Origin: Myxococcaceae bacterium
GTDB lineage: Bacteria; Myxococcota; Myxococcia; Myxococcales; Myxococcaceae
NCBI GenBank assembly: GCA_044230055.1
Contig: JBGART010000083.1
Span: forward strand, 1-30,659
Length of the DNA stretch: 30,659 bases
Direction: 5' to 3'
The position numbers and the translations under genes were made by a program. This document shows, piece by piece, positions 6,025 through 22,593 of the stretch. The stretch's first letter is position 1. The number at the start of each line of letters is the position of its first letter. The notes beneath the pieces were generated by a model. The model did not search any database, had not been told where the DNA came from, and saw only the letters and a list, made by a program, of their open reading frames with translations.

Positions 6025-6101
6025 CTGGCAGCGGATCGATGGATTCGAACCATCACCTCGAGATTAACGTTCTCGCGCTCTACCGATTGAGCTGGATTCG
6101 C
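6025..6101 (-). tRNA. tRNA gene or tRNA-like sequence, anticodon GTT (Asn) by position, with non-canonical features.
   Basis: Minus-strand read: gcgaatc-ca-GCTCaatcggtaGAGC-g-CGAGA-acGTTaa-TCTCG-aggt-GATGGttcgaatCCATC-gatccgc-t. The D-arm is canonical (G18G19) and the T-arm perfect (GGTTCGAATCC). Acceptor stem pairs 6/7 (A4:C69 mismatch). C at position 8 and C at position 33 (both normally U). No encoded CCA. Confidence 0.55.
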
Positions 6102-6315
6102 CACGAGTTTTCATGCTCGCGCGTTGTGGACCTTCGTCGGGAAGCCCGCCCGGCCGGCACCGAAGGTGTGAGAACCGCCGAAGCGATGGACCTGAGCAAA
6201 CGATGGCTCAGGCCAGCCAGGAGGCATCACGGGTAGCCGACGCGGCGAGGGACGGGACCTCCCATGAAAGCCTGACGGCCAGCGCTCCGCTGAATGGCGA
6301 AACACAGTCGGGCCC

Positions 6316-6540
6316 CTCCCCGTTCGCCTCGAGCGTTGCGCCGCCAGGCGCATAGTCGAGAGGTGGCGCAAACCCAGGCACGGCACTTTGCCGGTCTGTT
6401 TCGAGCAGAGCGAAGCGGCCCATGAGCCGAGCTTCGGGAGCAGTGCCGACGTCTCGACTATGCGCCTGACGGCGCAACGCTCGACGCGAACGGGGGCAAC
6501 TCCGCGAGGTGGCAGACCCCTATGAGCTGTTCTCCAGGAG
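6316..6540. repeat. Copy 2 of MITE-like element: ~45-bp terminal inverted repeats (6316-6360 and 6453-6496) flanking a 92-bp core, plus 3' tail ...gagctgttctccagga.
   Basis: Left arm ccccgttcgcctcgagcgttgcgccgccaggcgcatagtcgag is the reverse complement of right arm ctcgactatgcgcctgacggcgcaacgctcgacgcgaacgggg. The core is the reverse complement of the copy-3 core. Confidence 0.65.
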
Positions 6541-6569: not shown

Positions 6570-7025
6570 CTAGCTGCGAGGACGCCCCCTTCGGCGGGTG
6601 GCGTTCCCACCGAAGAGCTGCGAGGCGCGGGAGAGGTTGGCCTTCACCTTCGGGGCTTCGGTGCAGTCGCTGCCCTCGACGCACGCACAGCGCAGGCTCT
6701 CCTCGAGCAGCCGGCGCATCGTCTGCGCCTGCGCGATGAGCGTGTCGAGCTCCGTCATCTTCCGCGCCATCAGCTGCTGTCGGGCCAGCCGCGCGTCCTC
6801 CGTTCCGGAGGCGGTGTCGATCAACGCCTTGAGCTCCTCCAAGCTGAAGCCCAGGCGCTGGCCGATGTCGATGAGCACCAGCCTCTGCACCACGTCGTCG
6901 GAGTACTGCCGCCGCCCGCTGGAGCGCGGCGGCTCCTGCACCAGACCGAGCCGCTCGTAGTAGCGGATGGCGGAAGGTCGCAGGCCCGTCTTCTGAGCCA
7001 CCTCGGAGATGTTCATCGCCTGCAA
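6570..7025 (-). CDS. MerR-family transcriptional regulator with Cys-rich C-terminus (CACVEGSDC).
   Basis: N-terminal HTH MNISEVAQKTGLRPSAIRYYERLGLV (classic MerR signature), then a coiled-coil dimerisation region and a C-terminal Cys cluster. The likely true start is MNIS at 7016. Confidence 0.8.
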   Translation of the reverse strand: MQAMNISEVAQKTGLRPSAIRYYERLGLVQEPPRSSGRRQYSDDVVQRLVLIDIGQRLGFSLEELKALIDTASGTEDARLARQQLMARKMTELDTLIAQAQTMRRLLEESLRCACVEGSDCTEAPKVKANLSRASQLFGGNATRRRGRPRS

Positions 7026-7068
7026 TTACTGCCGGCGTTGCTCCGGCAGGTCAACCCAGCCCCGACCG

Positions 7069-9299: not shown

Positions 9300-11612
9300 T
9301 CAGTAGAACTGCAGGTACTGCACGGGAGAGGCGCTCGCCGAGGCGCGCTTGGGCAGAGACGGCAGGATGATGAGCGCCGCCTTCAGGAGTGCAGAGATGC
9401 GATCGTTGTCGATGCCGCGCAGCACCGCCTGGAACAACCCCAGCGCGTTGCGGGTGGTCTGAGGGAACGTGCGGAGGTCAAACGGGAAGGTGACGCTCTC
9501 CGGAGAGGACTGGCTGCGGACGTACGCCTCCATCCCCGCGCCCTCCTGCCGCTCCTTCAGCGCCGGGAAGATGAGCTCGCGCAGGAAGACGATGTCCTCG
9601 CCAAAGTCGATGGCCTCGTCCACCACCAGCGAGGCGAACATGAACGCCGAGAGCAAGGCCTCCCGCCGCTGCGCGCGCTCGTCAAGGCACTCGGCGCCGC
9701 TGAGCATCGCGGCGAAGGCCTCGGTAGGTAGGACGAAGGTGTCGAACTTGTAGTTGAAGATGTCCTCCATCGTCCGGCGGCCGGCGGCGGGCGGGAGGTG
9801 GCCGTGCTCCGCCTTGAACCAGGCGGAGTACATCACGCGGGTTTTTCCCTCGAGGTAGCGCTGGGCCTCGGGTCCGAACGGCGACGCGGCCTTCTCCCGC
9901 GCGAAGATGCTGGCCCACATCGCGCTCTCGTCATGGCTCCAGAGGTGGCGCTGAAATTCCCCCTCGCTGAGCGGGCGGCCCTGAAGCCGCAGGTCCTCGC
10001 GGAAGGAGCGGTCATCCACCACGCGGTCCAACATCACCATGAGGTTCCAGGAGGACGTGAACAGCCCCAGGCCGCCTCTTGCTGCGACGGATTCGAAGGA
10101 GTCCCCGGAGAGCATGCAGTACGCCCAGAGCGTCATCTTCACCGGCAAGCGCCGGTCATGCCGTTCGCCGATGACCGGATACTCGTCGCTCCACGAGCGC
10201 AGCCAGTCCTCCGTCCAGCGCGTGTACTGCCGGTCAAACTCGCGCAGGCTGCGCAGGACGCCGGGAATCTGCGTGAGCTCCGGCAGCGAGAGGGGCAGCT
10301 CATCCCGCATCTCACCCAGGCAGCCCATCAGCGGTTCCACCCGCGTGGTGGCGTAGGCGCGAAGCTCCTCGCGTGAGACCTCCGCCGGCTCGAACCGGCC
10401 GTGGCCCTGGCCCTCGTACGGGGAGCGCGGCGCGAAGAGCTGGAGCGGCTCCGTTGGAAAGACCGTGAAGCTCAACGGGAAGCGCTTGAGGCTGCCCAGA
10501 AGGTGCCGCACCGCGGACCCGCCCTCGCGCAGCCCCTGGAGCGCGGCGGCGAACCGGCCCGGCCGCGGGCGGCGGTGGGCGGCCTGCAGCGCCGGTGCGG
10601 CGCTTGAGCCAGGCTGGAACGCCTCGTCCTCCGGCAGGAGCAGCCGCGCCACCTTGTGGAGCTCCTGGAACGCCACCGTGTCGTTGCGCTCCGACTCCAG
10701 CAGGACGAGTGCCTCCCGGCCGTAGGACTGCGCCAGCTGCTCGCAGTACGCGGGAGCGCCCGAGTCGGCGATGAGGCGCAGGGCGCGCTGGAGCTCCGCC
10801 TCCTCGAGCACCGGCCGCTGCAGCAGCGCCTGCAGCTCCGCCGAGCGCTCAAGCGCGTAGAGCACCGGCAGCGTGCGCTTGCGCCGGACGAGGTCGCTCA
10901 CGCCCTGCTTCTGCAGCTGCTCGACCCGGAAGAGGCCCAGCGCGTCGTCGCGAATCTGGAAAGCCATACCCAAAAGCCGGCCAAAGCGACGCCACTTGTC
11001 AGCGTCTCCGCCCGCCAGCACCGCGCCCGCCTCGGTGGCCGCGCCGAACAACGCCGCAGTCTTGCCTGAGATGAGCTTCATGTATTCGAGGATAGAGACG
11101 TCCTCGCGGCGCTCGTTGCGCAGGTCCTGATACTGGCCCTCGCAGAGCTCCACTCCAGCGGCCTGCAGGATGCGCAGCAGCCGGAGCGCGGTGCGGGGGT
11201 CTACCCCGCGGGCCTCCACCTCCAGCGCCGCGAGGTTGGCCAGCGCGTGCATGCCGTCGCCGGTGTTGATGCCGTGGTTGAGCCCCCAGACTTTCCACAG
11301 CGTGGGATGCCCGCGCCGCACCTCATCCCCGTCCTCGATGTCGTCATGCACGAGCGAGAAGTTGTGCAACAGCTCGATGGACGCAGCCATCGGCAGGGCC
11401 TGCGCGCGCTGTCCCTCCAGCGCTTCGCAGGTGAGCAGGCACAGGGCGGCGCGGTAGCGCTTTCCTCTCCTGCCCGAGCCCGACGCCGGCTCCGCGCCCG
11501 ACCAACCCAGGTGGTAGCGCATCATGTCGTAGAACGCGCCGGTCTGGCTCCGCGAGTCGATGACACGGCGAATCTCCGCGTCCACCAGCGGACCGCACTC
11601 ATTCAGGGTCAT
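9300..11612 (-). CDS. Fusion protein: N-terminal trans-polyprenyl diphosphate synthase (FPP/GGPP synthase family, ~340 aa) + ~430-aa C-terminal domain of unknown function (possibly isoprenoid-synthase-like).
   Basis: First Asp-rich motif LVHDDIEDGDEVRRGHPT and second FQIRDDALG, with KT..LF and GKTAAL elements typical of polyprenyl synthetases. The C-terminal half contains DRVVDDRSFRED and LGLFQAVLRGIDNDRIS, weakly reminiscent of squalene/phytoene-synthase Asp-rich motifs (speculative). Confidence 0.75.
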   Translation of the reverse strand: MTLNECGPLVDAEIRRVIDSRSQTGAFYDMMRYHLGWSGAEPASGSGRRGKRYRAALCLLTCEALEGQRAQALPMAASIELLHNFSLVHDDIEDGDEVRRGHPTLWKVWGLNHGINTGDGMHALANLAALEVEARGVDPRTALRLLRILQAAGVELCEGQYQDLRNERREDVSILEYMKLISGKTAALFGAATEAGAVLAGGDADKWRRFGRLLGMAFQIRDDALGLFRVEQLQKQGVSDLVRRKRTLPVLYALERSAELQALLQRPVLEEAELQRALRLIADSGAPAYCEQLAQSYGREALVLLESERNDTVAFQELHKVARLLLPEDEAFQPGSSAAPALQAAHRRPRPGRFAAALQGLREGGSAVRHLLGSLKRFPLSFTVFPTEPLQLFAPRSPYEGQGHGRFEPAEVSREELRAYATTRVEPLMGCLGEMRDELPLSLPELTQIPGVLRSLREFDRQYTRWTEDWLRSWSDEYPVIGERHDRRLPVKMTLWAYCMLSGDSFESVAARGGLGLFTSSWNLMVMLDRVVDDRSFREDLRLQGRPLSEGEFQRHLWSHDESAMWASIFAREKAASPFGPEAQRYLEGKTRVMYSAWFKAEHGHLPPAAGRRTMEDIFNYKFDTFVLPTEAFAAMLSGAECLDERAQRREALLSAFMFASLVVDEAIDFGEDIVFLRELIFPALKERQEGAGMEAYVRSQSSPESVTFPFDLRTFPQTTRNALGLFQAVLRGIDNDRISALLKAALIILPSLPKRASASASPVQYLQFY

Positions 11613-11670
11613 TCGCAGCTCCTTGCTGCGTAGTAGGCAGATGAGGCGCAGAGGGTGACCTCGCGGTCGC

Positions 11671-11701
11671 TTGACTTGAAGTCGACTTCAACAATTACGG
11701 T
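11671..11701 (+). promoter_or_regulatory. MerR-type promoter: -35 TTGACT (11671-11676), 19-bp spacer containing perfect 16-bp palindrome TTGAAGTCGACTTCAA (11676-11691), -10 TACGGT (11696-11701). It drives the plus-strand gene at 11729 (RBS AGGAG 7 nt before the ATG).
   Basis: Read directly. The architecture (optimal hexamers with over-long 19-bp spacer and dyad operator centred in the spacer) matches Pmer/PcopA-type MerR-regulated promoters. Confidence 0.5.
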
Positions 11702-11728
11702 CCGCAGCGCACCCCCTTCGCAGGAGCT

Positions 11729-12379
11729 TTGAAGATGCGCTCGTCCACTCAACGCAAATCCCTGGCACGCCCGGCCGGAGTGCTCGCCCTCCTCTCTGGC
11801 TTTGGCTTTGTCGGCTTCAGCGGGCTGGCGTGCCTGGGCTGCCTGGTGCCGCTGGTCTCCGCCTGGGGCGTGGGCGCGCTGGCGGAACACTGGGCCGCGC
11901 TGCCCACCGCGGCGGGCCTCGGCTTCGCCGCCGTCGCTACCACCGTCTGGTTCTTCGTCATGCGCCGAAGGGAGCGCCGTACCGGCGCCGCCTGCGGCCC
12001 CGAGTGCGCCACACCGGTGGGCGTCACCGACAAGCCTGTCGCTTGCGACCTCAACGTCTTCACCCCGTCGGAGCGGGAGGAACACGGCTCCCAGTTTCTT
12101 CAGCGGGTGCTCGGCAAGGCGCGGCGGCGGGTAGAGCTCTCCGACGGACTGGCGCTGGAGTACGCGAGCGACCCCGACTTCTTCGTGCAGCTGGCGCAGT
12201 GGACGGTGAACGAGCGGCGCTGCTGCCCGTTCTTCACGTTTGAGCTGGCGCTGGAGCCGGACGGCGGAGCGCTCTGGCTCAAGCTGCGCGGGCCGCAGGG
12301 GACGCGCGAGCTGCTGCTGGCGGGGATTGCGTCGCTCCCTCCCCCGTTCGCGTCGAGCGTTGCGCCGTCAGGCGCATAG
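11729..12379 (+). CDS. Cys-motif membrane protein with MerT-like N-terminal half (two TM helices, CxxC in TM1, CGPEC in cytoplasmic loop) and a C-terminal domain containing a CC pair (ERRCCPFFTF). Candidate thiophilic-metal binding/transport protein. The 3' end runs into MITE copy 3.
   Basis: TM1 GLACLGCLVPLV resembles MerT ASACCLGPLV. The following loop AACGPECA resembles the MerT cytoplasmic Cys pair. The last 14 codons (...PPPFASSVAPSGA*) are encoded by the MITE arm, including the TAG stop. Confidence 0.6.
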   Translation: MKMRSSTQRKSLARPAGVLALLSGFGFVGFSGLACLGCLVPLVSAWGVGALAEHWAALPTAAGLGFAAVATTVWFFVMRRRERRTGAACGPECATPVGVTDKPVACDLNVFTPSEREEHGSQFLQRVLGKARRRVELSDGLALEYASDPDFFVQLAQWTVNERRCCPFFTFELALEPDGGALWLKLRGPQGTRELLLAGIASLPPPFASSVAPSGA

Positions 12380-12598
12380 TCGAGACGTCGGCAGTGCTTC
12401 CGAAGCTTGGCTCATGGGCCGCTTCGCTTTGCTCGAAACAACCCAGCAAAGTGCCGTGCGTGGGTTTGCGCCACCTCTCGACTATGCGCCTGACGGCGCA
12501 ACGCTCGAGGCGAGCGGGGAGGCGCCTGACTGAGAACAGCTGTTTCTCCGACGAAATGGCCGACCGGGGGAGGCGCCTGACTGAGAGCAGCTGTGCCC
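12337..12598. repeat. Copy 3 of MITE-like element: inverted arms 12337-12384 and 12477-12519, 92-bp core in opposite orientation to copy 2, followed by a 2x ~34-bp direct repeat tail (gggaggcgcctgactgaga[a/g]cagctgt...).
   Basis: Direct comparison with copy 2. Located between convergent genes (11729..12379 + and 12599..13762 -). Confidence 0.7.
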
Positions 12599-13762
12599 TT
12601 AGAAGTAGAGCCGAATCTGCAGGTGCCCCATCCTCGGGACCGAGCCGAGCTCACCCGCGCCGACGCTTACCATCCCTCCCGCGGCGACGGTGGTGTTCTG
12701 GTCAAAGCTCCACTCCAGCTCTGGCACCACCAGGCCAGAGCCGTCCGTCAGGTTGGCGATGACCACCAGGTTCGCCGTGAGCAGCGCGCCCAGCTCGTAG
12801 CTGACGGCCGCGCCCGCGTAGAAGCGCCCGACCAGGGCCAGCTCCCCCGACTGCCAATCCAGGCGGCGCCGGACGTCTGCGTAGCCGGCGGGCGTCAGCG
12901 CACCGGCGCGGCTGTAGTGCAGCTCCGCGGTGACGGTGAGCCCCGGCCGCAGCGTGTGCTGCGCGCCGACGGTGGCCCGCAGCAGCGGAATGCGCGAGGG
13001 CGGCTCCTCCACTTCTGAGCCGTCCTGCCGCGCCCGCCAGAACCCCTCCGCGTAGAGCGACGCGCCGCCCACGTCCCCGGAGACATCCACTGCCACCGCC
13101 GGCGACGTGCCGGAGACGCCGGCGTACGCCGCGAGGTCCACGCCCGGGACGCTCACCCGGGCGCGGCCCAGCAGCGCGCCCTGGCTCAGGTAGCGGCGGT
13201 GGCCCACCGCGTACACCTCCAGCTCCACCTGCTCGCCCACCGGCGCAGTCAACCGCACCGCGTCCACGCCGGTCTTGAACTCCCGGTCCAGCGCTGCGGG
13301 GTGGAACGGCGCGAAGAGGTCCGACGCGGCGAACAGCCGCGCGCTGCCGTGGCCCAGCGCCTGACGCCCCACCCGCAGCGTCGCCGCCCCCACCGCGAGC
13401 GTCAGCATCAAGCGGTCCAGGTTCTGGTCCAGCGCGAAGCTGGAGGTGCGCACAATCTGCCGTGGCGCATCCACCAGCCGCAGGGCGGTGTGAACCGAAG
13501 GCGCTGCTTGCAGCGGGAAGACCGCCGACTGGAGCGCGTAGGCCAGCTCGAACGCGCCGTCCTCGCCGCTGACTTTGAGCTCCGCGCGCAGGCCCTGCTC
13601 CACCGCAGCCTGCGCCGGCGCGTCCGGCCCCGCGGGCGCGAGGTAGAGCGTGAGCACCTTGAGCCGCCCGCCGAAGGTGGCGGTGCGCTCGGCCCCTGAG
13701 AGCTCGAACGCGAAGGCGGCCCGGGACGCGAGCAGCAGCGCGAGCCACGCGGCCCGCCTCAT
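12599..13762 (-). CDS. Outer-membrane beta-barrel protein (signal peptide, C-terminal aromatic residue), last gene of the export operon.
   Basis: MRRAAWLALLLASRAAFA signal. Alternating amphipathic beta-strand pattern. C-terminal ...HLQIRLYF. The start overlaps the stop of the upstream ABC ATPase gene. Confidence 0.6.
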   Translation of the reverse strand: MRRAAWLALLLASRAAFAFELSGAERTATFGGRLKVLTLYLAPAGPDAPAQAAVEQGLRAELKVSGEDGAFELAYALQSAVFPLQAAPSVHTALRLVDAPRQIVRTSSFALDQNLDRLMLTLAVGAATLRVGRQALGHGSARLFAASDLFAPFHPAALDREFKTGVDAVRLTAPVGEQVELEVYAVGHRRYLSQGALLGRARVSVPGVDLAAYAGVSGTSPAVAVDVSGDVGGASLYAEGFWRARQDGSEVEEPPSRIPLLRATVGAQHTLRPGLTVTAELHYSRAGALTPAGYADVRRRLDWQSGELALVGRFYAGAAVSYELGALLTANLVVIANLTDGSGLVVPELEWSFDQNTTVAAGGMVSVGAGELGSVPRMGHLQIRLYF

Positions 13763-14472
13763 CGCCGCTCGTCTGCCTCAACCCTCCCGTCGTGGAGCGT
13801 CACCCGCCGGGACGCGGCGGCCATCACCCGCGGGTCGTGCGTGGAGAAGATGAACGTCGTCCCCAGGCGCCGGTTGAGGTCCACCATCATCTCCACGAGC
13901 GCATCCCCGGTCTTGCTGTCGAGGTTGGCGGTGGGCTCATCCGCCAGCACCAGCGCGGGCTTCGGGGCGATGGCACGCGCCACCGCCACGCGCTGCTGCT
14001 GCCCGCCGGAGAGCTCGTTCGGACGGCGGTGCAGCTTGTCGCCCAGCCCCACCTGCTCCAGCGCGTGCGAGGCGCGCTCCCTCCGCTCCTTCTTCTTCAC
14101 GCCCTGAATCCACATCACGTACTCCACGTTCTCCAGGACGCTCATCACCGGCACCAGGTTGTAGGCCTGGAAGACAAAGCCGATGCGGTCTCTCCGCAGC
14201 AGGCTGAGCGCGCTCTCCGGCAGGCGGGTGAGGTCCTTCCCCTCGAGGACGACGGCGCCCTCACCCGGGCGGTCCAGCGCACCCACCAGGTGCAGCAGCG
14301 TGGACTTGCCGGAGCCCGAGGGGCCGGCGATGGCCACCAGCTCCCCCGGCGCCACCCGGAGCGACACCCCGTTGAGGGCCCGGACGGTCTCGCTGCGCGA
14401 GGTGTAGTGGCGGCTGACGTCCCGAAGCTCGACGACGTTCTGCGGGGCGACCATGACGGCTCCCTCCTCCAT
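13759..14472 (-). CDS. ABC transporter ATP-binding protein (LolD/MacB-NBD/FtsE-like).
   Basis: Walker A GPSGSGKST, ABC signature LSGGQQQRVAVARA, Walker B LVLADEPTANLD, H-loop THD. ATG at 14472 overlaps the permease stop (ATGA). Confidence 0.85.
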   Translation of the reverse strand: MEEGAVMVAPQNVVELRDVSRHYTSRSETVRALNGVSLRVAPGELVAIAGPSGSGKSTLLHLVGALDRPGEGAVVLEGKDLTRLPESALSLLRRDRIGFVFQAYNLVPVMSVLENVEYVMWIQGVKKKERRERASHALEQVGLGDKLHRRPNELSGGQQQRVAVARAIAPKPALVLADEPTANLDSKTGDALVEMMVDLNRRLGTTFIFSTHDPRVMAAASRRVTLHDGRVEADERR

Positions 14473-15698
14473 CAAGCGGGATTGAGCGCTTCCACCGGCC
14501 GCAGGCGCGCGGCCCGCACCGCGGCGAAGAGCCCGGTGAGCGCGGTGAGGCCGGCGAACAGCGGCGCCAGCGTGAGCGCGTGCGCGGCCTTCGGCCGGAA
14601 CAGGATGGCGTCCTTCACGTAGACGCCGGAGAACTCCATGCCTTCGATGGGCATGCCCCAAATGGCGAACGGCGCACACAGCGCGAAACCCAGCGCGCAG
14701 CCGGCCGCCGCCCCCAACAGGCCCAGCGCGGTGGACTCGCACAGCAGCAGCGCAGCCAGCCGCGCGGGCGAGGTGCCCAACGCGCGCAGGACACCGAGCT
14801 CGCGCAGCCGCTCCGCGAAGGACATCCGCAGGGTGTTGACGATGGAGAAGCTCGCCACACCGAAGACGGCCAGCGCCAGCAGGTAGATGAGGTTGCGCTG
14901 GAACTGGTACGCGGTCCACAGGAGCGCGTTGAGACGCTGCCACGGCGCCACCTCCACGTCCGGACCCAGCGCCCCGCTCAAGGGCAGCAGCGCAGCGTCC
15001 AGCACCGCCGGGTCCGTGTTGGGCCCCGCAAGCTTCAGCGCCACCTCGTGCAGCTCCCCGCCCTGCCCGCTCAAGGCGCCGGCCTGCGGGAGCGAGGTGA
15101 CGACGGCCTCGCGGTCCAGCAGCGCGTTTCCAGAGGCGATGAGGCCGCTCACCCTCACCAGAACGCTGCGCAGCTCGCCGGTGCGCGCGTCCGCCGCGGT
15201 GAGCACCAGCTTGTCGCCCACGCCCAGCTCCAACCGGGTGGCCAGCTCATGCCCCAGGAGCGCCTGGCCCTCACGGACCGGCCAGCTGCCGTGGAGCAGC
15301 TTCCGGTGGAAGAGCGTCACCTTCGGCTCCTCGGCAAGGTCCACGCCGATAACCTGCACGTTGGCGCTGCGGTCTCCCATCGCCGCCAGCGCCAGCACGT
15401 ACTGCCGCGGCGCCGCGGCGAGCACGCCCGGCGTGGCGCGGGCAGCTTCCAGCGCGCGGGGCCCGTCCGGAAGAACCCGCTCCTGCTCGCGCTCGGCGCG
15501 GTAGGCGCGATGGTGCAGCTGCGCGTCGCCCAGAAAACCTCCGGCGGAGACCTCCACCGCCTGGACGAAGAGCCCCTCGATGTAGCCGAGCAGGAAGAGG
15601 AAGAGCGCCAGGCCCAGGCCAATGGCGGACGCGGTGAGCAGCGTGCGCTGCCGCTGCCGCCACAGGTTGCGGAAGGCGAGCGTGAACATCCAGAGCAT
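14472..15698 (-). CDS. FtsX-family ABC permease (LolC/LolE/MacB-like, four TM with large periplasmic domain).
   Basis: N-terminal LAFRNLWRQRQRTLLTASAIGLGLALFLF and C-terminal FtsX block ...VASFSIVNTLRMSFAERLRELGVLRALGTSPARLAALLL... Confidence 0.8.
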   Translation of the reverse strand: MLWMFTLAFRNLWRQRQRTLLTASAIGLGLALFLFLLGYIEGLFVQAVEVSAGGFLGDAQLHHRAYRAEREQERVLPDGPRALEAARATPGVLAAAPRQYVLALAAMGDRSANVQVIGVDLAEEPKVTLFHRKLLHGSWPVREGQALLGHELATRLELGVGDKLVLTAADARTGELRSVLVRVSGLIASGNALLDREAVVTSLPQAGALSGQGGELHEVALKLAGPNTDPAVLDAALLPLSGALGPDVEVAPWQRLNALLWTAYQFQRNLIYLLALAVFGVASFSIVNTLRMSFAERLRELGVLRALGTSPARLAALLLCESTALGLLGAAAGCALGFALCAPFAIWGMPIEGMEFSGVYVKDAILFRPKAAHALTLAPLFAGLTALTGLFAAVRAARLRPVEALNPA

Positions 15699-15703
15699 GG
15701 GGC

Positions 15704-16903
15704 CTACGTCTCCTTCATCGCGTGAAGCGGAGTCAGCCGCGCGGCGCGGAGCGCGGGCCAGAGGCTGGCGAGCAGCCCGCCTACCAGCAGCACCAGCGGA
15801 TAGAGGAGGTTCCCCTCCGCGGTGGCCAGCCCCTGCACGGTGTGGAAGACGACGCCGGCAATCTCCATCGGCTCATCGCCTATCGGAACTTGAAGGCCAT
15901 TCATCGCGGTGCCCAGGAGCGCGCCCACCGTCACGCCTCCGGCCGTGAGGAAGAAGGCCTCCCAGAGGATGAGGCCCACCACCTGGCGGGGTGAAGTCCC
16001 TAGCGCACGCAGGATGCCCAGCTCGCGCGTCCGCTCGAAGACGGACATCAGCAGCGTGTTGACCACGCCCACCGCGATGATGGCCAGGAAGATGACCACG
16101 CCTGGCCGGTTCGCGCCGCGCTCGGTCCGGATGTAGTTGGCCAGCGCAGGCATCACCTCCGGCCAGCCCTGCAGCCGGTGTCCCTGCACCGAGGGCAGGC
16201 GCGTGAGGAAGGCCTCCAGCGCCGTGGGCTCATGCAGCCGGCCCACCACCCGGTGCGCGCGGTCCGGCAGCTCCAGGAGCTCTCGGGCGTCGGCCAGGGT
16301 CACGAAGGCCAGCGCGCTGTCCGCCTCGTCGGAGCCGGAGGTGTAGACGCCGCGGACGCGGAACAGCTGCGCCGCGACGGCGCCGTCCGCGGCCTGACCG
16401 AGGAAGCTCACCTCGTCCCCCACCTTCACGCGCAGCCGCGCGGCCACGCCGCGGCCTAAAAGGATGTCCGCGCCGGCGCCGGGCGTCAGCCACGCGCCCT
16501 CCTTCACCGCGGCGGGGATGCGCGTCACCTCCGGCTCGCGCACCGCGTCCACGCCGATGAGGCGGACGCCGACAGACCTGTGGCCGGCGGAGACCAGCCC
16601 GGGCGCCTCCACCCGCTCGGTCACCGCGCGGACCTCGGGCGCCTCCCGCAGCGCCTGCGCCACGGCGCCCGCGCCGCGCACCGTCTTGTTCACGCCCGGG
16701 CGCGCGTTGAAGTCGCCCGCCATCACCTGGAAGTGACCGTGAAAGCCCTGCGTCACCCCGTCGGTCAGCAGCGCGAAGCTGCCCTCGTTGACGCCGTTTA
16801 TCCACACCAGAAAGGCGGTGCCCAGCACCACCATCGCCACGGTGAACGCCGAGCGGCGGGTGTTGCGGCGCAGGTTGCGCAGCGCCAGCCCTGCGGTCGC
16901 CAT
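15704..16903 (-). CDS. FtsX-family ABC permease (second LolC/E-like paralogue).
   Basis: MATAGLALRNLRRNTRRSAFTVAMVVLGTAFLV... and C-terminal ...VGVVNTLLMSVFERTRELGILRALGTSPRQVVGLIL... The ORF-track ORF (to 17374) over-extends; ATG at 16903 abuts the upstream gene stop. Confidence 0.8.
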   Translation of the reverse strand: MATAGLALRNLRRNTRRSAFTVAMVVLGTAFLVWINGVNEGSFALLTDGVTQGFHGHFQVMAGDFNARPGVNKTVRGAGAVAQALREAPEVRAVTERVEAPGLVSAGHRSVGVRLIGVDAVREPEVTRIPAAVKEGAWLTPGAGADILLGRGVAARLRVKVGDEVSFLGQAADGAVAAQLFRVRGVYTSGSDEADSALAFVTLADARELLELPDRAHRVVGRLHEPTALEAFLTRLPSVQGHRLQGWPEVMPALANYIRTERGANRPGVVIFLAIIAVGVVNTLLMSVFERTRELGILRALGTSPRQVVGLILWEAFFLTAGGVTVGALLGTAMNGLQVPIGDEPMEIAGVVFHTVQGLATAEGNLLYPLVLLVGGLLASLWPALRAARLTPLHAMKET

Positions 16904-17649
16904 CACCCGCCCCCGGAGGTGAGCGCGGAGAGCGTGAAGAGGGACTCGCTGGCCGGCGTGTCGAACTCCAGCGTGTCGTAGAGGAGCGTCGTCTGGTGGC
17001 CCTGCTTCGTGAGCGGCGTGACCACCAGCTTGTGCGGCGTGAGCCGCTCCCCCACCTTCCTCACGTCGGAGAACGTCAGGCGGCGCGCCAGGCGGCCCTT
17101 GTCGTCGTGGTACTCGCAGGTGACCGGGACCAGCGTCCGCGCGTCCACGCAGGCCACCACCCGCTCCCAGGCGACCGCGGCGTCCGGCCGGGCCTTGAGC
17201 TCCACGCAGGTCTGCCCTTCGGGCGCGGATGGGAGGGTGGTCCCCTCGTAGTCGACGCTGTACTTCACCGCCTGGACGAGGTCGTCGTGGGTGAAGTCGC
17301 TCCCCATCCAGGAGCTCATCAACATCGAGGGCGGGATGCGCACCGTCTTGCCAATCTTCGGCAGGTAGTTCCACATCTGGGCGCCCTTCTTCAGGCTGGC
17401 AGTGCCGCTCTCCTTCTTCGGCGCCAGAATCCTCACCAGCGCGTCATCCGCGCCGCGCGACCAGAAGTCCAGGCTGAGCTCGCGCTGGAAGTCCGGCGCC
17501 TGCACCTGCATGCGCATCCGGCCGTGGCTGGTCCGGGACCGGAACAGCTCATCCAGCCGCGCGCTCACCGCCTTCGCCTTCTCATCCGGCGCCGCCTGCG
17601 CCGCGACGCCCGCCACCAGCAGCGCCAGCACCCATCCCCGGCTCCTCAT
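16903..17649 (-). CDS. Periplasmic LolA-like / outer-membrane lipoprotein-sorting (DUF-type) protein commonly partnered with FtsX/ABC exporters.
   Basis: Signal peptide MRSRGWVLALLVAGVAAQA; ~230-aa beta-rich soluble protein; conserved partner position. The start ATG overlaps the TfuA stop (ATGA). Confidence 0.6.
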   Translation of the reverse strand: MRSRGWVLALLVAGVAAQAAPDEKAKAVSARLDELFRSRTSHGRMRMQVQAPDFQRELSLDFWSRGADDALVRILAPKKESGTASLKKGAQMWNYLPKIGKTVRIPPSMLMSSWMGSDFTHDDLVQAVKYSVDYEGTTLPSAPEGQTCVELKARPDAAVAWERVVACVDARTLVPVTCEYHDDKGRLARRLTFSDVRKVGERLTPHKLVVTPLTKQGHQTTLLYDTLEFDTPASESLFTLSALTSGGG

Positions 17650-18977
17650 CCGTTCGCCCCTCCGTACTCGCGCAGCAGCTCCTCCAGCAGCGCCTCACCG
17701 CTCTCGAACCCCAGCTCCCGCGCGTGCAATTCGACGGACCCGCCGACGGTCCGCACCTGCCGCTGGTAGGTCTCCAGCGCGCGCGCCAGTCGCCGCTCCC
17801 GCGCTCCAGGCTCCTCGGCCGCGGGTGCCGGGCGCTCGCGCAGGTGCGCAAGCGTGCGCCCGAACGTCCCGCGCCGCTTGAGCTCCTGCGACAGCAGCTG
17901 CGCCAGCCGCCCCTCGCCGCGCAGCGCCGCCTGTACCTTGTCGAAGAGCACCTCGAAACGCAGGACTTCGCGCAAGCCCGCGCCCGACAGCTGATTCTCC
18001 TCCAGCCAGCGCCGCGTGGCCTGCGCGCTCACCAGGCCTCGCGCCCGACGGAAGCGCTCACCGGCCGCCGCCACCTCCTGCTCGCTGACGGCAAGCCCCC
18101 TCGCCGCCGCCTCCAGCTCCAGCAGCTGGAGCAGCACCGTCGAGCGCAACAGCTCCTCGCCCTCCGGCCGCACGCGCACGCCCCGCCAAAGCGCCGCCGC
18201 ATCCACGTCTGCAGACGGCGCGTCCGGCAACGCGAGCTGCTCCGGTGAGGTGGAGCGGACCAGCTTGTGCCAGAAGCGCGTCTGCTCGAAGTGAAAGCCC
18301 GGCGCGGGCGCCAGCGCCGGCAACCCTTCAGCGAGCCGCTGCAACAGCGCCACCGCGTCGCTCCGCTTGAGGTTCGGCCGGTGGGCGAGGACGAAGGCGC
18401 GCAGCCGCGCGCGCTCCGCACCCGGGATGGCCAGCGCTTCGCCCAGCCCCTCGCTCCACAGCGCGGGCCAGCTGCGCTCCGGGTAGTGCAGCCCCTTCGC
18501 CGCCTGCTCCAGCAGCGTCCGCGTCCGGGCGGAGATGTCTCCGGCCTGCTCCGCCAGCCGCAGCCCATCCCGCAGGTTGACCATCGCGTCGGAGAGCGGC
18601 ACGTAGCCGTCCTCCGCGGGGCCGTGGACCACGGTCACCTCGTCGTCGTCCTCCAGCACCCCGTCGCGGTAGGCCTCGAAGATGCGCCCCACGCCCTCCA
18701 TCCCGAAGGCACAGAGCTCCGCGGCGCGCAGCGCCCCCATGCTGGAGGCCCCCAGTACGCGCACGCCGCTGGCCAGCGCGAAGAGCAGCTCCTTGTGCCA
18801 GACCGCCGGGCGCTGTTCAAAGAAGCCGTCGATGAGCGCGATGACGGACGGCTTGCGCGTGGCCACCAGCTGGTAGACGTCCCCCATCGCCGCTGGGGGC
18901 AGGAAGTGGGCCGTGGGGAGCAGGGCCTTCGCCTCGACGGGCGGCAGGGAAGGACCCAGGAAAACCCAGACGCTCAC
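17646..18977 (-). CDS. TfuA-like protein (YcaO partner for peptide backbone thioamidation) with ~200-aa C-terminal extension.
   Basis: N-terminus (M)SVWVFLGPSLPPVEAKALLPTAHFLPPAAMGDVYQL...IALIDGFFEQRPAVWHKELLFALASGVRVLGASSMGALRAAEL...GVGRIFEAYRDGVLEDDDEVTVVHGP, a near-textbook TfuA domain. GTG start overlaps the YcaO stop. Confidence 0.8.
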   Translation of the reverse strand: MSVWVFLGPSLPPVEAKALLPTAHFLPPAAMGDVYQLVATRKPSVIALIDGFFEQRPAVWHKELLFALASGVRVLGASSMGALRAAELCAFGMEGVGRIFEAYRDGVLEDDDEVTVVHGPAEDGYVPLSDAMVNLRDGLRLAEQAGDISARTRTLLEQAAKGLHYPERSWPALWSEGLGEALAIPGAERARLRAFVLAHRPNLKRSDAVALLQRLAEGLPALAPAPGFHFEQTRFWHKLVRSTSPEQLALPDAPSADVDAAALWRGVRVRPEGEELLRSTVLLQLLELEAAARGLAVSEQEVAAAGERFRRARGLVSAQATRRWLEENQLSGAGLREVLRFEVLFDKVQAALRGEGRLAQLLSQELKRRGTFGRTLAHLRERPAPAAEEPGARERRLARALETYQRQVRTVGGSVELHARELGFESGEALLEELLREYGGANG

Positions 18978-20209
18978 GCGCGCGCCTCCTGCGTTGCGGA
19001 GGCCTTGAGGTATGCGTTGACGCGTGGGCCCGGCTGGTAGTCGCTGGCGAAGAGCCGCGCCTCCAGCCCCGGGACCACTACCTTCACCACGGGCACCTTC
19101 AGCTCCGGCCGGGAGAGGTTCACCACCGCTGCTTGCGCCAGGCCGATGCGCCGCAGCGCCTGCACGAGGACCTGGAGGTCTCCCTCGAAGGTGTCCGTCG
19201 CCAGGCTGGCGCGCGCGCGGAACGCGGCGGCCGGCGCCGGGGTGCGGATGCGCTCAATGCGGGCGGCCAGGGCGGCGTCACGCGTCCAGGCGCGGTACTT
19301 CGAGTAGAAGAGGTCATCCCGGCTCCCGGAGACGAAGGCCAGCCGGCTCTGCACCGCTTCGCTGAGCGCGCGCATCAGCGCCACCGCGGGGGAGAGGTGA
19401 CAGCCGTAGCCTCCGAAGATGCCCAACCTCCGCCAGCGCGGCCGGTCGGATCCGTCGAAGAGCTCGCAGGCGTACGCCGGGATGCCGGTGTCCGAGGTGA
19501 CGTCCCAGATACCCACGTCGACGTCCGCCAGCCGCATGCGGCGCAGCAGCTCCAGACAGCCGGCGTCATCCACCGTCGCCGGGTCCACCTGCCGCGTCTT
19601 CGCTTCCTCGGCGCTCTGGTACTCCCAGAGCGTGATGGCGTCCCGCTCGATGAGCTCGCACAGGCCGTGGACGGTGGCCTCCACCAGGTGATTGCCAGAG
19701 GCCAGCCCGTTGCTGGAGGGCGGCACGACCGGGCGGTAGCCCGCAGGCCAGACGAAGCTGACGCTCACCGCGTCGTGCGGCACCCAAACGGACTCGCCGC
19801 GCAGGAGGTCCTCTCCCTCCACCCAGAGGCAAGGGCCGGCTTGGGGACCCAGCCCCAGCTCCAGCACCCGGGAGGACTTCGCCAGCAGCGCAGGCTGTTC
19901 GTGCCGCAAGGGCAGCGCCAGGTGTTCGCCGTGCCAGACCTCGATGGACTCCATCAGGGCGGACACCTTGGCGGCGAGAGGGTCCAACCCCTTCCCCTGC
20001 GACGTCGCCAGCGAGCGCGAGTTGGGCCGCACCGCCACGTAGACGGGCAAGCCAATCCGGTCCAACCCCGTCACGTTCGCCAGCCGCGTGATGCCCAGCG
20101 GGCCCATCAGCGGCGAGAAGCGCGCGAAGGTCTCCTCCGGGCTGCACGCGCGGTGCGTCCCGTTGAGGAAGCGCTTGGGCGGATGCGGTGGCTCGCCCCA
20201 GAGGTTCAT
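18974..20209 (-). CDS. YcaO-domain protein (ATP-dependent peptide backbone amide activation: cyclodehydratase/thioamidase type).
   Basis: LNGTHRACSPEETFARFSPLMGPLGITRLANVTGLDRIGLPVYVAVRP...LCELIERDAITLWEY (YcaO ATP/Mg-binding ExxERD-type motifs). ATG overlaps the stop of the upstream HO-like gene. Confidence 0.85.
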   Translation of the reverse strand: MNLWGEPPHPPKRFLNGTHRACSPEETFARFSPLMGPLGITRLANVTGLDRIGLPVYVAVRPNSRSLATSQGKGLDPLAAKVSALMESIEVWHGEHLALPLRHEQPALLAKSSRVLELGLGPQAGPCLWVEGEDLLRGESVWVPHDAVSVSFVWPAGYRPVVPPSSNGLASGNHLVEATVHGLCELIERDAITLWEYQSAEEAKTRQVDPATVDDAGCLELLRRMRLADVDVGIWDVTSDTGIPAYACELFDGSDRPRWRRLGIFGGYGCHLSPAVALMRALSEAVQSRLAFVSGSRDDLFYSKYRAWTRDAALAARIERIRTPAPAAAFRARASLATDTFEGDLQVLVQALRRIGLAQAAVVNLSRPELKVPVVKVVVPGLEARLFASDYQPGPRVNAYLKASATQEARA

Positions 20210-20928
20210 GCGGTCTGCCGGTAGACGTCGTGACCCATCCGCCCCCAGGTCTCCAGGGTGGCGCGCGCGTGGAGCAACACCGCCTCCTGGTCCGCCGGGT
20301 CCGTGAAGCCGCGCAGCCGCCGCCGGGCCGCGTCCATGTGACCCACGTCCGACTCCGCGTGGCCGCCGAAGAAGCTCACCGCGTTGCGGATGTTGGGGAG
20401 CTGCGAGTGGGCGATGAGGTTCTTCACAATCCGTCCCGCCACCTTCTCCCCGAGCGACTCCAACACGTAGGCAATGCCCCAGACGCCCACCGGCGTGGGA
20501 CTGAGCGCGGCCGCCCAGAACATGGCGATGTACGCTTTGGCCGCCGGGCCGGGCTGGCTGCGCTCCAGCGCCTCGCGGGAGACGCCCAGCTCACCCAGGT
20601 CCGAGGCCAGCCACGCGTCATGCCCGGACTCTTCGTCACCGTGCGCGGCCAGCTCCTTCGCCATCTGCTGGAGGTAGGGCGTCTTGAAGCGCGCCCAGCG
20701 CGCGTCCGCGAAGCGCGCATCGTCGCTGCCGTAGAGCCGCATGGACTCGCCGGCGGCGCGGAGCATGGCGGGGACGTGCTTGGCGCCCTGGCGAATCTCG
20801 TCATAGATGCCGATGAGCTGCGCGCGCGTGGGCGTGCCGCGCAGGAGCGGCCCGAAGACCGGGTCCTCCTCCAGCTGGGCCGCCAGCTGCGCGCTCAGCG
20901 CTTCCAGCTGTTCAATCAAGTCGCTCAT
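20206..20928 (-). CDS. Haem-oxygenase-like di-iron enzyme / 'iron-containing redox enzyme family' (TenA/PqqC/CADD-like fold) protein.
   Basis: ~240 aa, all-helical. Recurring E/H/D ligand pattern (...DEESGHDAW..., ...FFGGHAESDVGHMD...). Family assignment is from memory of this protein family and is less certain than YcaO/TfuA. Confidence 0.55.
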   Translation of the reverse strand: MSDLIEQLEALSAQLAAQLEEDPVFGPLLRGTPTRAQLIGIYDEIRQGAKHVPAMLRAAGESMRLYGSDDARFADARWARFKTPYLQQMAKELAAHGDEESGHDAWLASDLGELGVSREALERSQPGPAAKAYIAMFWAAALSPTPVGVWGIAYVLESLGEKVAGRIVKNLIAHSQLPNIRNAVSFFGGHAESDVGHMDAARRRLRGFTDPADQEAVLLHARATLETWGRMGHDVYRQTA

Positions 20929-21010
20929 GGTGTTTCGCCTTCGGGTGACGGGTGGCTTCGAAGCACGGCGCGGGCGACGTGGAGCTCGCCCGCGCCATGC
21001 CGCTACAGGC

Positions 21011-21148
21011 GTCAGTCGTTGATGAGACAAGCGTTGCCAATCAGGCACGCGTCGCCCACCGGGTCGCTGCTGATGAGGCAGGCCGACTCGGCCTTGCTCT
21101 CACCGGCGAGCTCTTCCGCCGTCTTCACGTCGAGATCCTTGATGTCCA
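21011..21148 (-). CDS. Candidate RiPP precursor peptide, 45 aa: MDIKDLDVKTAEELAGESKAESACLISSDPVGDACLIGNACLIND. Acidic helical leader + core with three ACLI repeats.
   Basis: Found by hand translation of the 270-bp gap between the terpene synthase and the HO-like gene. ATG at 21148 is preceded by AGAGAGGAGGGGAAGAGAAAAA (GGAGG RBS). GC3-rich codons are consistent with host usage. TGA stop at 21011-21013. Not in the ORF track (too short). Confidence 0.65.
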
Positions 21149-21200
21149 TTTTTTCTCTTCCCCTCCTCTCTTGGGCCAGGGTCGTCACGGGTGGCCGCCC

Positions 21201-22106
21201 TCAAGAGAACAGGGCACCGGGGACGGTGTCGAAGCGAGCCGTTGCCCATCGGCCCCAGTCGTAAGAACCGCGCATGATGTGTCGCAAGACCTCGGTGAGC
21301 CGTCGGACCGCGGCGTCCGCGGCGCCGCCGAAGCGGGGCAGCGCCTTCTCCCGCTCCAGGAAGAGCTCCACCAATCCATTGGAGACGCGGGCCACCCCCT
21401 CCAGCGCCCGCGTAGAAGAGCAGCCGCGCTCCGCCTTGAGCATCCGCACCACGTTGTTCTCCCGGCAGGTGTCCGGTTTCATGGAGAAGGCCAGCACGTC
21501 GCTGGTGAGCCGCACTGCCAACGCGGCCAGCCGCTTGAGCCGCGCGAGCGCCGGGTGACACCGCAGCTGCGGCGGCACGTCGATGCCCTTGAGCACCTCG
21601 ACAATCCAGACGCAGGGATAGATGGCCACCGCGGACGCCTCCATCTCCAGGTACTGCGCGAAGGACGGGACGCGGGACAGCCGCCGGTTCTCCGCCTCCC
21701 AGCGCCACGAGTCCTGCATCTCCTCCACCAGCACATCGAACTCCTCGAGCGCTGGCCGCTCGCAGAACGTCCCCAGCCGCTGGCGGAGGTCGCCGAAGGC
21801 GGCCCCCAATGCCGCGTCCATCACCCGGGGCTGCCTCGCGCACGACGTCCCATCACAACGGGCGTCGATGGCGAAGACCCAGGCCAGGTAGTCCGCGAGG
21901 AGCTGGAGCCGCTCCGTGGGACCGTCGGGGTACATCATCCCCCCGAGCACATGGACCGCGAACCGGTCGAACTCCCCGACTGCTCCGGCGTCGAGCACGC
22001 CCATCTGTTCCAGCCATTGCAGCATCGGCTGGCGGGTGTGCTCACACCGGACGTTGGACGCAGGCGGGAAGGGATAGAAGAGGTCTGGAAGGCGCGCCGT
22101 CTGCAC
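21201..22106 (-). CDS. Class I terpene synthase (bacterial terpene cyclase family) with degenerate first metal-binding motif. The start is uncertain (GTG 22106, or upstream 22220 overlapping the neighbouring gene).
   Basis: LPDLFYPFPPASNVRCEHTRQPMLQWLEQMGVL...LADYLAWVFAIDARCD aligns with the ...ADYSAWFFVWDDRHD region of bacterial cyclases; here the DDxxD motif is D-A-R-C-D. An NSE-like region RENNVVRMLKAE lies ~135 aa later, and the C-terminus has a W...R(F) motif. Confidence 0.65.
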   Translation of the reverse strand: MQTARLPDLFYPFPPASNVRCEHTRQPMLQWLEQMGVLDAGAVGEFDRFAVHVLGGMMYPDGPTERLQLLADYLAWVFAIDARCDGTSCARQPRVMDAALGAAFGDLRQRLGTFCERPALEEFDVLVEEMQDSWRWEAENRRLSRVPSFAQYLEMEASAVAIYPCVWIVEVLKGIDVPPQLRCHPALARLKRLAALAVRLTSDVLAFSMKPDTCRENNVVRMLKAERGCSSTRALEGVARVSNGLVELFLEREKALPRFGGAADAAVRRLTEVLRHIMRGSYDWGRWATARFDTVPGALFS

Positions 22107-22125
22107 GGGTTCCTGACCTCGCCCG

Positions 22126-22593
22126 CTACTGGCGGCGTCCCCAACCGGTGAAGTTGACGTCCTTGTTGCCCACGCTGACGAAGCGGATTTCCCGCCCGCC
22201 GTCGTCGAGCACGAACTCAATCTTCGAGGCTTCGCCCTCGGCGGTGATGCAGTCCATCTTGCCGAGGCCGCCGCGGCGCAGCTCGTACTTGCAGACGAAC
22301 GCCTCGCGGGCGCTCTGGCCGCCGGGCGCGCTGATGACGAACTCGCCCGTCACGCGGCTGATGCCGTCCGCGTGCAGCCGCCCAATCTCGAAGATGCGGG
22401 CGCCGTTGGCGAGGACACCCTCCACCGAGACGCCGTAGGCGCCCTTGAGGTCATGCGGCTTGAAACAGTCGTTGGCGTTGTTGTTGAGCGCCTGCGTCTG
22501 GGCGGACAGCTCCTCGCCAGGCGTGGCCGCCATCAACAGGGCAGCGAGGGGAACCAGGACGGCCACCGAGGACAGCGCATAGAGCTTCTTCAT
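22126..22593 (-). CDS. Secreted hypothetical protein (~155 aa, signal peptide, beta-rich; calycin/nitrobindin-like guess only).
   Basis: ATG 22593 gives MKKLYALSSVAVLVPLAALLMAATPGEEL... The ORF track's longer version uses an upstream alternative start. Confidence 0.5.
   Translation of the reverse strand: MKKLYALSSVAVLVPLAALLMAATPGEELSAQTQALNNNANDCFKPHDLKGAYGVSVEGVLANGARIFEIGRLHADGISRVTGEFVISAPGGQSAREAFVCKYELRRGGLGKMDCITAEGEASKIEFVLDDGGREIRFVSVGNKDVNFTGWGRRQ

Follow-up and report, generated by a model that had tools for sequence, protein, structure and literature searches.

The region at positions 11671 to 11701 of a contig from a Myxococcaceae bacterium (JBGART010000083.1) raises the question of whether a MerR-type switch lies there and, if so, which regulator would act on it and what the gene behind it might do. 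We call the window the whole stretch of DNA that was analyzed, 30,659 nucleotides in length. The original prediction was of a TTGACT-19 bp-TACGGT promoter with a perfect 16-bp palindrome. Direct reading of the sequence confirmed each of its coordinates, and the spacer, on whose length the prediction depended, does count 19 bp (Table 1). A separation of 19 to 20 bp between the hexamers, instead of 17, is a trait of MerR-type promoters (PMC1526738), and the window site shows it. The dyad lies within the spacer and overlaps the final base of the -35 hexamer (11676). Its centre contains a SalI site, GTCGAC, and its core is kept in the 22 homologous sites described below.

Table 1. Positions of the features of the locus within the window.
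Feature	Position	Strand or length	Basis
MerR-family regulator gene, 148 aa	6570-7016	minus	Pfam MerR_1 3e-16, MerR-DNA-bind 3e-10
op2, second operator-like dyad TCAAGTCGACTTCAA	7953-7967	plus	core pattern, 0.01 expected per window
Divergent neighbour, 770-aa polyprenyl-synthase fusion	9300-11612	minus	profile matches; start 59 bp from -35
-35 hexamer TTGACT	11671-11676	plus	direct read; TTGAC invariant in 22 homologous promoters
Operator, perfect 16-bp dyad TTGAAGTC/GACTTCAA = TTGAAGTCGACTTCAA	11676-11691	none	direct read; fits TnAAG-N4-CTTnAA core
Spacer tgaagtcgacttcaacaat	11677-11695	19 bp	direct read
-10 hexamer TACGGT (TAnnnT)	11696-11701	plus	19 bp from -35; geometry as in 22 homologous sites
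Ribosome-binding site AGGAG	11722-11726	plus	8 nt before ATG 11735; direct read
Target gene, 214 aa	11735-12379	plus	GC3 0.88; no Pfam/NCBIfam match; 2298 related clusters
192-nt palindromic repeat element	12341-12532	none	starts 39 nt before target stop; -132.8 kcal/mol, z = -10.1

A single TTGAC-N20-TAnnnT arrangement is present in the 30.6-kb window; shuffled sequences give an expectation of 0.02. The expectation per window is likewise 0.02 for the operator 16-mer with up to three mismatches, and it is 0.00 for TTGACNTNAAGNNNNCTTNAA. A standard sigma-70 scan allowing spacers of 16 to 18 bp returned zero promoters between 11000 and 13000, which is consistent with the 19-bp spacer being over-long. 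As judged from its sequence, 11671-11701 is a genuine MerR-type promoter with a dyad operator in its spacer, and its assignment to this class of switch is well supported.

The gene downstream, originally predicted to encode 216 aa, is real but shorter by its start. It begins at ATG 11735 and not at TTG 11729, because AGGAG precedes that ATG by 8 nt and the database copy of the protein has 214 aa. It is one of three plus-strand genes called in the window, compared with about two dozen on the minus strand. Topology and fold predictions, which had been proposed for the product, gave two N-terminal transmembrane helices (aa ~14-36 and ~58-85) in a module of ~95 residues. They are followed by a compact alpha/beta domain (aa ~98-200, nt 12026-12334) with the order alpha-beta-beta-alpha-beta-beta-alpha and an AF2 pLDDT >90. 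The cysteine motifs claimed for the protein are all present, with C33xxC36 within the first helix, C87GPEC91 after the second and C163C164 in the C-terminal domain, which also holds C104. RRRERR follows the second helix, and both termini are predicted to be cytoplasmic because positive charges flank both ends of the N-terminal helices.

No match to the 214-aa product was found in Pfam, NCBIfam or PDB sequences. Its closest homologue, P0002, is 54-56% identical (BLASTP/alignment) and has an identical architecture. A metagenome protein scan by alignment, in search of its promoter, gave no hits. The label "MerT-like" did not survive. Pfam scans for MerT/MerF at E <=1 were run on the window protein, its first 100 aa and eight transmembrane-fused homologues. 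Neither the window protein nor its N-terminal 100 aa matched the MerT family (PF02411), and the best MerT score, 16.5 bits in one homologue, fell short of the cut-off of 32.9. Membership of the N-terminal module in MerT/MerF was thus rejected as sub-threshold Pfam noise and kept as a resemblance of cysteine pattern only. The conserved core of the product is an unannotated soluble domain distinct from MerT.

An exhaustive HMMER search with the product (E <=1e-3) matched 2298 clusters at 50% identity, 439 of them at <=1e-10, and all 2298 matches were confined to the C-terminal domain (query residues 98-200). Members of this C-x58-CC family are mostly stand-alone proteins of 100-130 aa. The cysteines are conserved in homologues, as had been predicted: an alignment of 135 sequences shows invariance at C104 and C163 and at least 90% conservation at C164, G138, E160, P165, F166 and G186. 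The ~100-aa alpha/beta domain is recognizable from an N-terminal [A/F/Y]C[D/N] motif and an ER.CCPF motif. The family also includes tandem duplications, signal-peptide (periplasmic) forms, fusions to DinB or MFS domains, and fusions at either end to two-helix membrane modules with CxxxC/CxC clusters. Both cysteine clusters are kept in ten of about fourteen transmembrane-fused homologues. For P0004, a distant one, a separate MerR-type promoter was found (TTGACC-20-TAGCCT around CTGGAGcctgCTCCAG), along with a MerR gene in convergent orientation. Every homologue checked was named "hypothetical protein" in the databases, and the window proteins were nameless. Literature searches, incomplete in coverage, yielded nothing specific on three-Cys SoxR-like MerR proteins or on the C-x58-CC family.

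We gathered 80 genome loci carrying the domain by means of the peptide ERRCCPFF, taken from the alignment of a 24-sequence subset. These loci came from Acidobacteriota, Chloroflexota, Myxococcota and several other phyla. Profile searches of six-frame ORFs found a single conserved neighbour, a MerR-family gene, directly adjacent to the family gene in about 40 loci and mostly divergent from it, with a gap of 50-130 bp. The regular expression TTGAC.-19-TA...T matched upstream of the family gene in 23 loci. The consensus CTTGACTTAAAGyrnACTTnAA…TAnnnT, or TTGACT-TnAAGnnnnCTTnAA with a 19-bp spacer, was strongly conserved also in columns outside the regular expression.

A scoring matrix was built from the 22 non-window sites and scanned over about 1.56 million positions. 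With the window thus left out of the matrix, the window site scored 39.3 bits and was the only such site in the window. Scores of >=12 bits were essentially restricted to positions just upstream of family genes and reading into them, the matrix being partly circular for its own loci, where training sites had been chosen by the -35/-10 regular expression. Exceptions came from the same dyads read on the reverse strand (two cases) and from two Herpetosiphon-type loci, each with two additional sites heading other genes of its cluster. In these Chloroflexia loci (L020 5881-7826, and L019) one cluster holds three operator copies: one precedes the family gene, one the gene of a rhodanese-domain protein, and one the gene of a free-standing Cys-rich membrane protein of 99 aa (GLACLIPC…AACGCGDGQC), which diverges from merR. 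The gene for a membrane protein of the YnfA/UPF0060 type lies divergent to the family gene.

Promoter and regulator were then cross-tabulated over 82 related loci. A site of >=20 bits was found at 27 of the 29 family genes beside a MerR with a C-terminal CxCx5C motif, in every case oriented to transcribe the family gene. No such site was found at the nine family genes beside a different, co-directional MerR type, and six of the 45 family genes with no MerR in the fetched flanks, the window's among them, had one.

The reverse comparison started from the operator. An exact metagenome scan for TTGACNTNAAGTCGACTTNAA returned at least 120 loci, in which 94 ORFs matched the MerR profile, nearly all of them divergent and beside the site. 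Among the matches listed, the merR start codon lies 4-83 bp from the -35 box. Where the regulator was of the CxCx5C type, the family gene follows the site in 17 of 21 cases (among the matches listed, with >=450 bp downstream); a thioredoxin, a small Cys-containing membrane protein or a secreted protein follows in the exceptions among them. Four-Cys regulators were absent from the matches listed for these loci. The promoter is thus linked statistically, in both directions, to one regulator subfamily and one gene family.

A second MerR subfamily uses the same AAGTCGACTT core operator, mostly in the form TTGACCTCAAGTCGACTTGAAG. Its tail reads ECPxFRRxLxAAASGA, without CxCx5C. Among the matches listed, 43 of 46 loci of this type (in the L086-L204 range) had no family gene after the site, and the regulators of the other three were truncated ORFs of uncertain type. 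The gene most often found after an ECPxFRR-type site encodes a ~280-aa SAM-methyltransferase-like protein (at least 15 loci; e.g., L185 2146-3063), and the two appear to form a likewise uncharacterized pair. One ECPxFRR-type locus, L154, bears the window's exact 22-mer, TTGACTTGAAGTCGACTTCAAC; therefore, the operator sequence alone cannot identify its binder, which is the chief reservation about the pairing proposed below.

The original prediction had pointed to a MerR-family gene with a C-terminal cysteine cluster 4.6 kb from the promoter. This gene is real, and members of its subfamily stand elsewhere directly beside the family gene and the operator. Its ORF spans 6570-7025, with ATG 7016 as the likely start, and a profile search found no second MerR gene within the 30.6-kb window. 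The cluster has the form C-x-C-x5-C (LRCACVEGSDC, i.e., C-A-C-VEGSD-C). The window MerR shares with its relatives the SAIRYYE recognition-helix motif and the CxCx5C motif, and their C-terminal tails read, for example, LRCKCLTLEDC or QNCRCTKLDQC. Identity is 35-47% (72-112 bits) to the adjacent CxCx5C regulators elsewhere, 31% to Escherichia coli SoxR and 28-38% to the other MerR type among the genome loci.

Distance speaks against pairing this regulator with the operator, as 4.6 kb and three unrelated genes intervene. The pairing is nevertheless supported because the subfamily, the operator and the family gene co-occur elsewhere; it rests on this co-occurrence, the regulator and operator being non-adjacent in the window genome, and both of the independent comparative tests favour it. 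MerR 6570-7016 is most likely the cognate regulator of the operator. Immediately upstream of merR, at ~7025-7065 on the minus strand, TTGACC-19-GTAATT encloses the dyad TGCCGG-N7-CCGGCA, with scarcely any leader before the ATG. It may be a further promoter of the MerR kind or, for the ECF sigma gene, a terminator hairpin.

The closest known counterparts of this operator and regulator appear to be soxS and SoxR. The E. coli soxS promoter, read from the genome as TTTACC-TCAAGTTAACTTGAGGAAT-TATACT, has the same 19-bp geometry; its spacer agrees with the window's at 13 of 19 bases, and both contain the AAGT-NN-ACTT core. The outer half-site bases of the SoxR box (CCTCAAGTTAACTTGAGG) differ from those of the window, and the box is common to at least two non-SoxR subfamilies. 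Next to AAG, the half-site has G in the window and mostly A or C in the relatives. The alignment of the window MerR with E. coli SoxR is gapless in and around the cysteine cluster, with one 1-residue gap upstream. SoxR carries a four-Cys [2Fe-2S] motif, CX2CXCX5C (PMC8063818). Its last three cysteines are retained in the window MerR, whereas the first ligand, C119, is replaced by Ser (S-L-R-C-A-C-VEGSD-C), at a position unconserved in 29 relatives. SoxR loci resemble the canonical C-x58-CC loci in that regulator and target are divergent. The targets differ, being a SoxS-type regulator, an efflux pump or an oxidoreductase for SoxR and an unannotated Cys domain family here. On the SoxR model (TIGR01950) the window MerR scored 62.7 bits against a cut-off of 116.9, and its relatives scored 58-79 bits, several subfamily members scoring best there. 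A true SoxR was rejected on that score and on the absence of the first cluster cysteine. The CxCx5C subfamily looks like a SoxR relative with a three-cysteine sensor.

The window MerR reached none of the NCBIfam equivalog thresholds. Its scores were 82 bits for CueR (cut-off 147.4), 74.6 for MerR TIGR02051 (150.85), 49.7-54.6 for ZntR (143-168) and 48.8 for CadR (151.5). The comparison of half-sites with characterized operators, which the original prediction had proposed, gave a single shared element: the centre AGTCGACT is identical to that of the ZntR consensus ACTCTGGAGTCGACTCCAGAGT. The MerR, CueR, ZntR and CadR operators otherwise differ from the window's (PMC1526738). Like the putative regulator here, ZntR is a thiolate-rich MerR-family sensor. 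However, its operator is a 22-bp dyad in a 20-bp spacer with different arms (CTCTGG), and the window has neither an equivalent of its C79 nor a P-type ATPase as target. The mer operons of Tn21/Tn501 (MerR/merTPAD) share the 19-bp spacer, the dyad, the three-Cys sensor and, with the canonical loci, the divergent regulator. MerT and MerF are alike in pattern only, as small membrane proteins with a Cys pair in the first helix and a cytoplasmic Cys pair. The MerR operator, TCCGTAC-4-GTACGGA (PMC1526738), is unrelated to the window's. MerR uses C82 plus C117/C126, whereas the three cysteines of the window MerR all lie in one C-terminal loop. No homology to MerT, MerP or MerA was found at the target, and membership in a mer operon was rejected given the different operator, the score on the MerR model and the lack of PF02411.

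CueR gave the best NCBIfam score and has a 19-bp spacer, and the first and last cysteines in the loop of the window MerR are spaced as C-x7-C, like C112-C120 of CueR. A small thiol-dependent metal-binding protein as target would also parallel CueP of the CueR regulon (CopA/CueO/CueP). The loop of the window MerR, however, holds an extra cysteine, and the CueR operator, ACCTTCCC-5-TGGAAGGT (PMC1526738), is unrelated. Membership in the CueR, ZntR and CadR-PbrR groups was rejected, the equivalog cut-offs being missed and the operators being different (PMC1526738). In ArsR-controlled arsM operons, the genes of some C-x58-CC members lie beside those of ArsR and a bona fide ArsM or between the two; the ArsM neighbours of these paralogues scored 301 and 311 bits against an NCBIfam cut-off of 263. 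The window differs from these operons in having a MerR-type control region and no ars genes. ResA-like thioredoxin and CcdA genes are occasional neighbours of family genes.

In the window, the start of the polyprenyl-synthase gene (11612) takes the position that merR holds in the canonical loci (4-83 bp from the -35 box among the matches listed), and the intergenic region between it and the target gene measures 122 bp. The N-terminal ~325 aa of the 770-aa protein correspond to a polyprenyl synthase, and its C-terminal 441 aa have no match in Pfam or PDB sequences. Its best NCBIfam model is the family-2 encapsulin cargo polyprenyl transferase (252 bits, below the cut-off of 450). The idea that the operator also controls isoprenoid genes is positionally reasonable but unsupported by conservation: no polyprenyl synthase was found beside the C-x58-CC family among the compared loci. 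Inspection by eye of the minus strand at 11613-11701 gave no convincing hexamers for a divergent sigma-70 promoter. An amine oxidase, an ECF sigma factor and merR follow the synthase in the same orientation, so the divergent transcript may extend to merR as its distal gene.

The second dyad, op2, shares the 15-mer AAGTCGACTTCAACA with the main site and has no usable -35 and -10 boxes. It falls inside the amine-oxidase ORF, in its 3' tail, with the ECF-sigma/MerR pair ~270 bp downstream of it, and the two operators are direct repeats that flank exactly the amine-oxidase and polyprenyl-synthase genes. We can speculate that these two isoprenoid-type genes were inserted into an ancestral merR-operator-target cassette, with op2 kept for autoregulation.

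The 192-nt element at the end of the target gene is a probable terminator or stabilizer, and it has an inverted twin at 6305-6496, just past the 3' end of merR. Each consists of 47-nt inverted arms around an 84-nt centre. The two full copies are 94% complementary to each other and enclose precisely the segment that runs from merR to the 214-aa gene; partial copies lie at 1542-1608 and 1626-1692. They may be REP/MITE-like terminators or the ends of a mobile or invertible segment. A tRNA-Asn (GTT) gene at 6026-6102 on the minus strand, ~200 bp from the first element, is a possible landmark of island integration. ARAGORN called a second tRNA within a CDS (13285-13363); this call lacks Rfam support and is probably false. 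A D1-D4 fragment of a group II intron was detected at 1238-1408 on the minus strand (70 bits in Rfam). Further along the window, a run of minus-strand genes (13759-22220) encodes MacB/FtsX-type ABC transporter components, a LolA-like protein, TfuA, YcaO, a haem-oxygenase-like iron enzyme and a terpene synthase. TfuA and YcaO are associated with thioamide/azoline-type peptide modification, and this run looks like a natural-product cluster.

The best explanation overall, and a probable one, combines a MerR-type promoter, a CxCx5C MerR and a 214-aa thiol protein, and we have good confidence that they make up a regulatory unit. By analogy with MerR, CueR and SoxR, a dimer of the regulator would sit on the dyad in both states and keep the promoter closed. 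Occupation or modification of the C-terminal Cys loop would then twist and kink the spacer so that RNA polymerase could use both boxes and the promoter would drive the target gene. The product, a two-helix membrane anchor with Cys pairs and a cytoplasmic ~100-aa domain with three invariant Cys, might bind, relay or sequester thiol-reactive species. Between a soft metal(loid), e.g., As(III), Hg(II), Cd(II) or Cu(I), and an oxidant or electrophile, the former would be slightly the more likely. Sets of three cysteines are typical of soft-metal(loid) sites, and a three-thiolate site is the classic As(III) site. The three-thiolate motifs in both regulator and target, the Cys-pair membrane modules and the ArsR/ArsM linkage point to such a signal. 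We hold to a metal(loid) signal tentatively, somewhat short of even confidence, and place it slightly ahead of a thiol or redox signal.

Should the signal be of the latter kind, the promoter unit would be the same, the regulator would sense thiol/redox state or electrophiles, and the product would be a thiol-redox protein, which we regard as a live option though less likely than not. The same reserve applies to its switch, which would be SoxR-derived and would operate by Cys oxidation, persulfidation, or a cluster in which a ligand other than Cys takes the remaining place. The likeness to soxS/SoxR, the best scores of several members on the SoxR model, the thioredoxin directly behind the operator in L126 and the rhodanese in L020 all suggest it, as do the ResA-like and CcdA neighbours and the fusion of some family members to DinB. 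They have to be set against the incomplete SoxR cysteine set, whose first Cys is Ser in the window at a position unconserved in this subfamily, the three-Cys sets in both regulator and target, the paralogues linked to ArsR/ArsM, and the transmembrane Cys-pair modules that resemble, in pattern only, Hg uptake proteins. The small Cys membrane protein found behind the same operator elsewhere would, like the L126 and L020 genes, suit a thiol or a soft-metal role.

It is improbable that the operator is bound instead by an ECPxFRR-tail MerR encoded elsewhere in the genome, of which only 30.6 kb is visible in the window. That type does use the same core operator, down to the identical 22-mer in L154, but it mostly lacks the family gene after its site (43 of 46 loci among the matches listed). 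The family gene goes with the CxCx5C type in both comparisons (27 of 29, and 17 of 21 among the matches listed), and the only MerR encoded in the window is of the CxCx5C type. MerR 6570-7016 would in that case regulate something else, e.g., via op2 or its own upstream dyad, which is just as improbable. A chance palindrome around the SalI site with fortuitous hexamers and no regulatory role would be in keeping with the fact that single palindromes do occur by chance, and with nothing else. With 0.00-0.02 occurrences expected per window and the same 31-bp architecture upstream of homologous genes in Acidobacteriota, Chloroflexota and Myxococcota, the comparative data effectively refute this reading, to which we assign next to no likelihood.

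On comparative grounds, then, the CxCx5C MerR and the C-x58-CC protein probably form a widespread but unstudied stress-response pair. New here are the regulator subfamily, the operator consensus and a main target family of thousands of proteins without annotation. A more far-reaching possibility, which we consider unlikely, is that the two form an unrecognized and widespread module of soil bacteria for sensing and handling soft metal(loid)s, in which the regulator would be a SoxR descendant with its Fe-S cluster exchanged for a three-thiolate site and the target a new three-thiolate chaperone or sequestration domain. If this were true, the regulator would possibly be the first MerR-family sensor of As(III)/Sb(III) (or Hg/Cd), and the target domain would be at work in the cytoplasm, in the periplasm or, as in the window, fused to a Cys-pair membrane relay. 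As switches, MerR-type promoters rank among the best understood in bacteria, and many metal biosensors are built on them. A metal(loid)-specific sensor would bring new sensing chemistry to the MerR family and a new biosensor part, and a redox sensor would show how a SoxR scaffold functions when the fourth ligand of its cluster is missing. In abundant soil phyla, a large group of "hypothetical proteins" becomes directly testable by a simple reporter.
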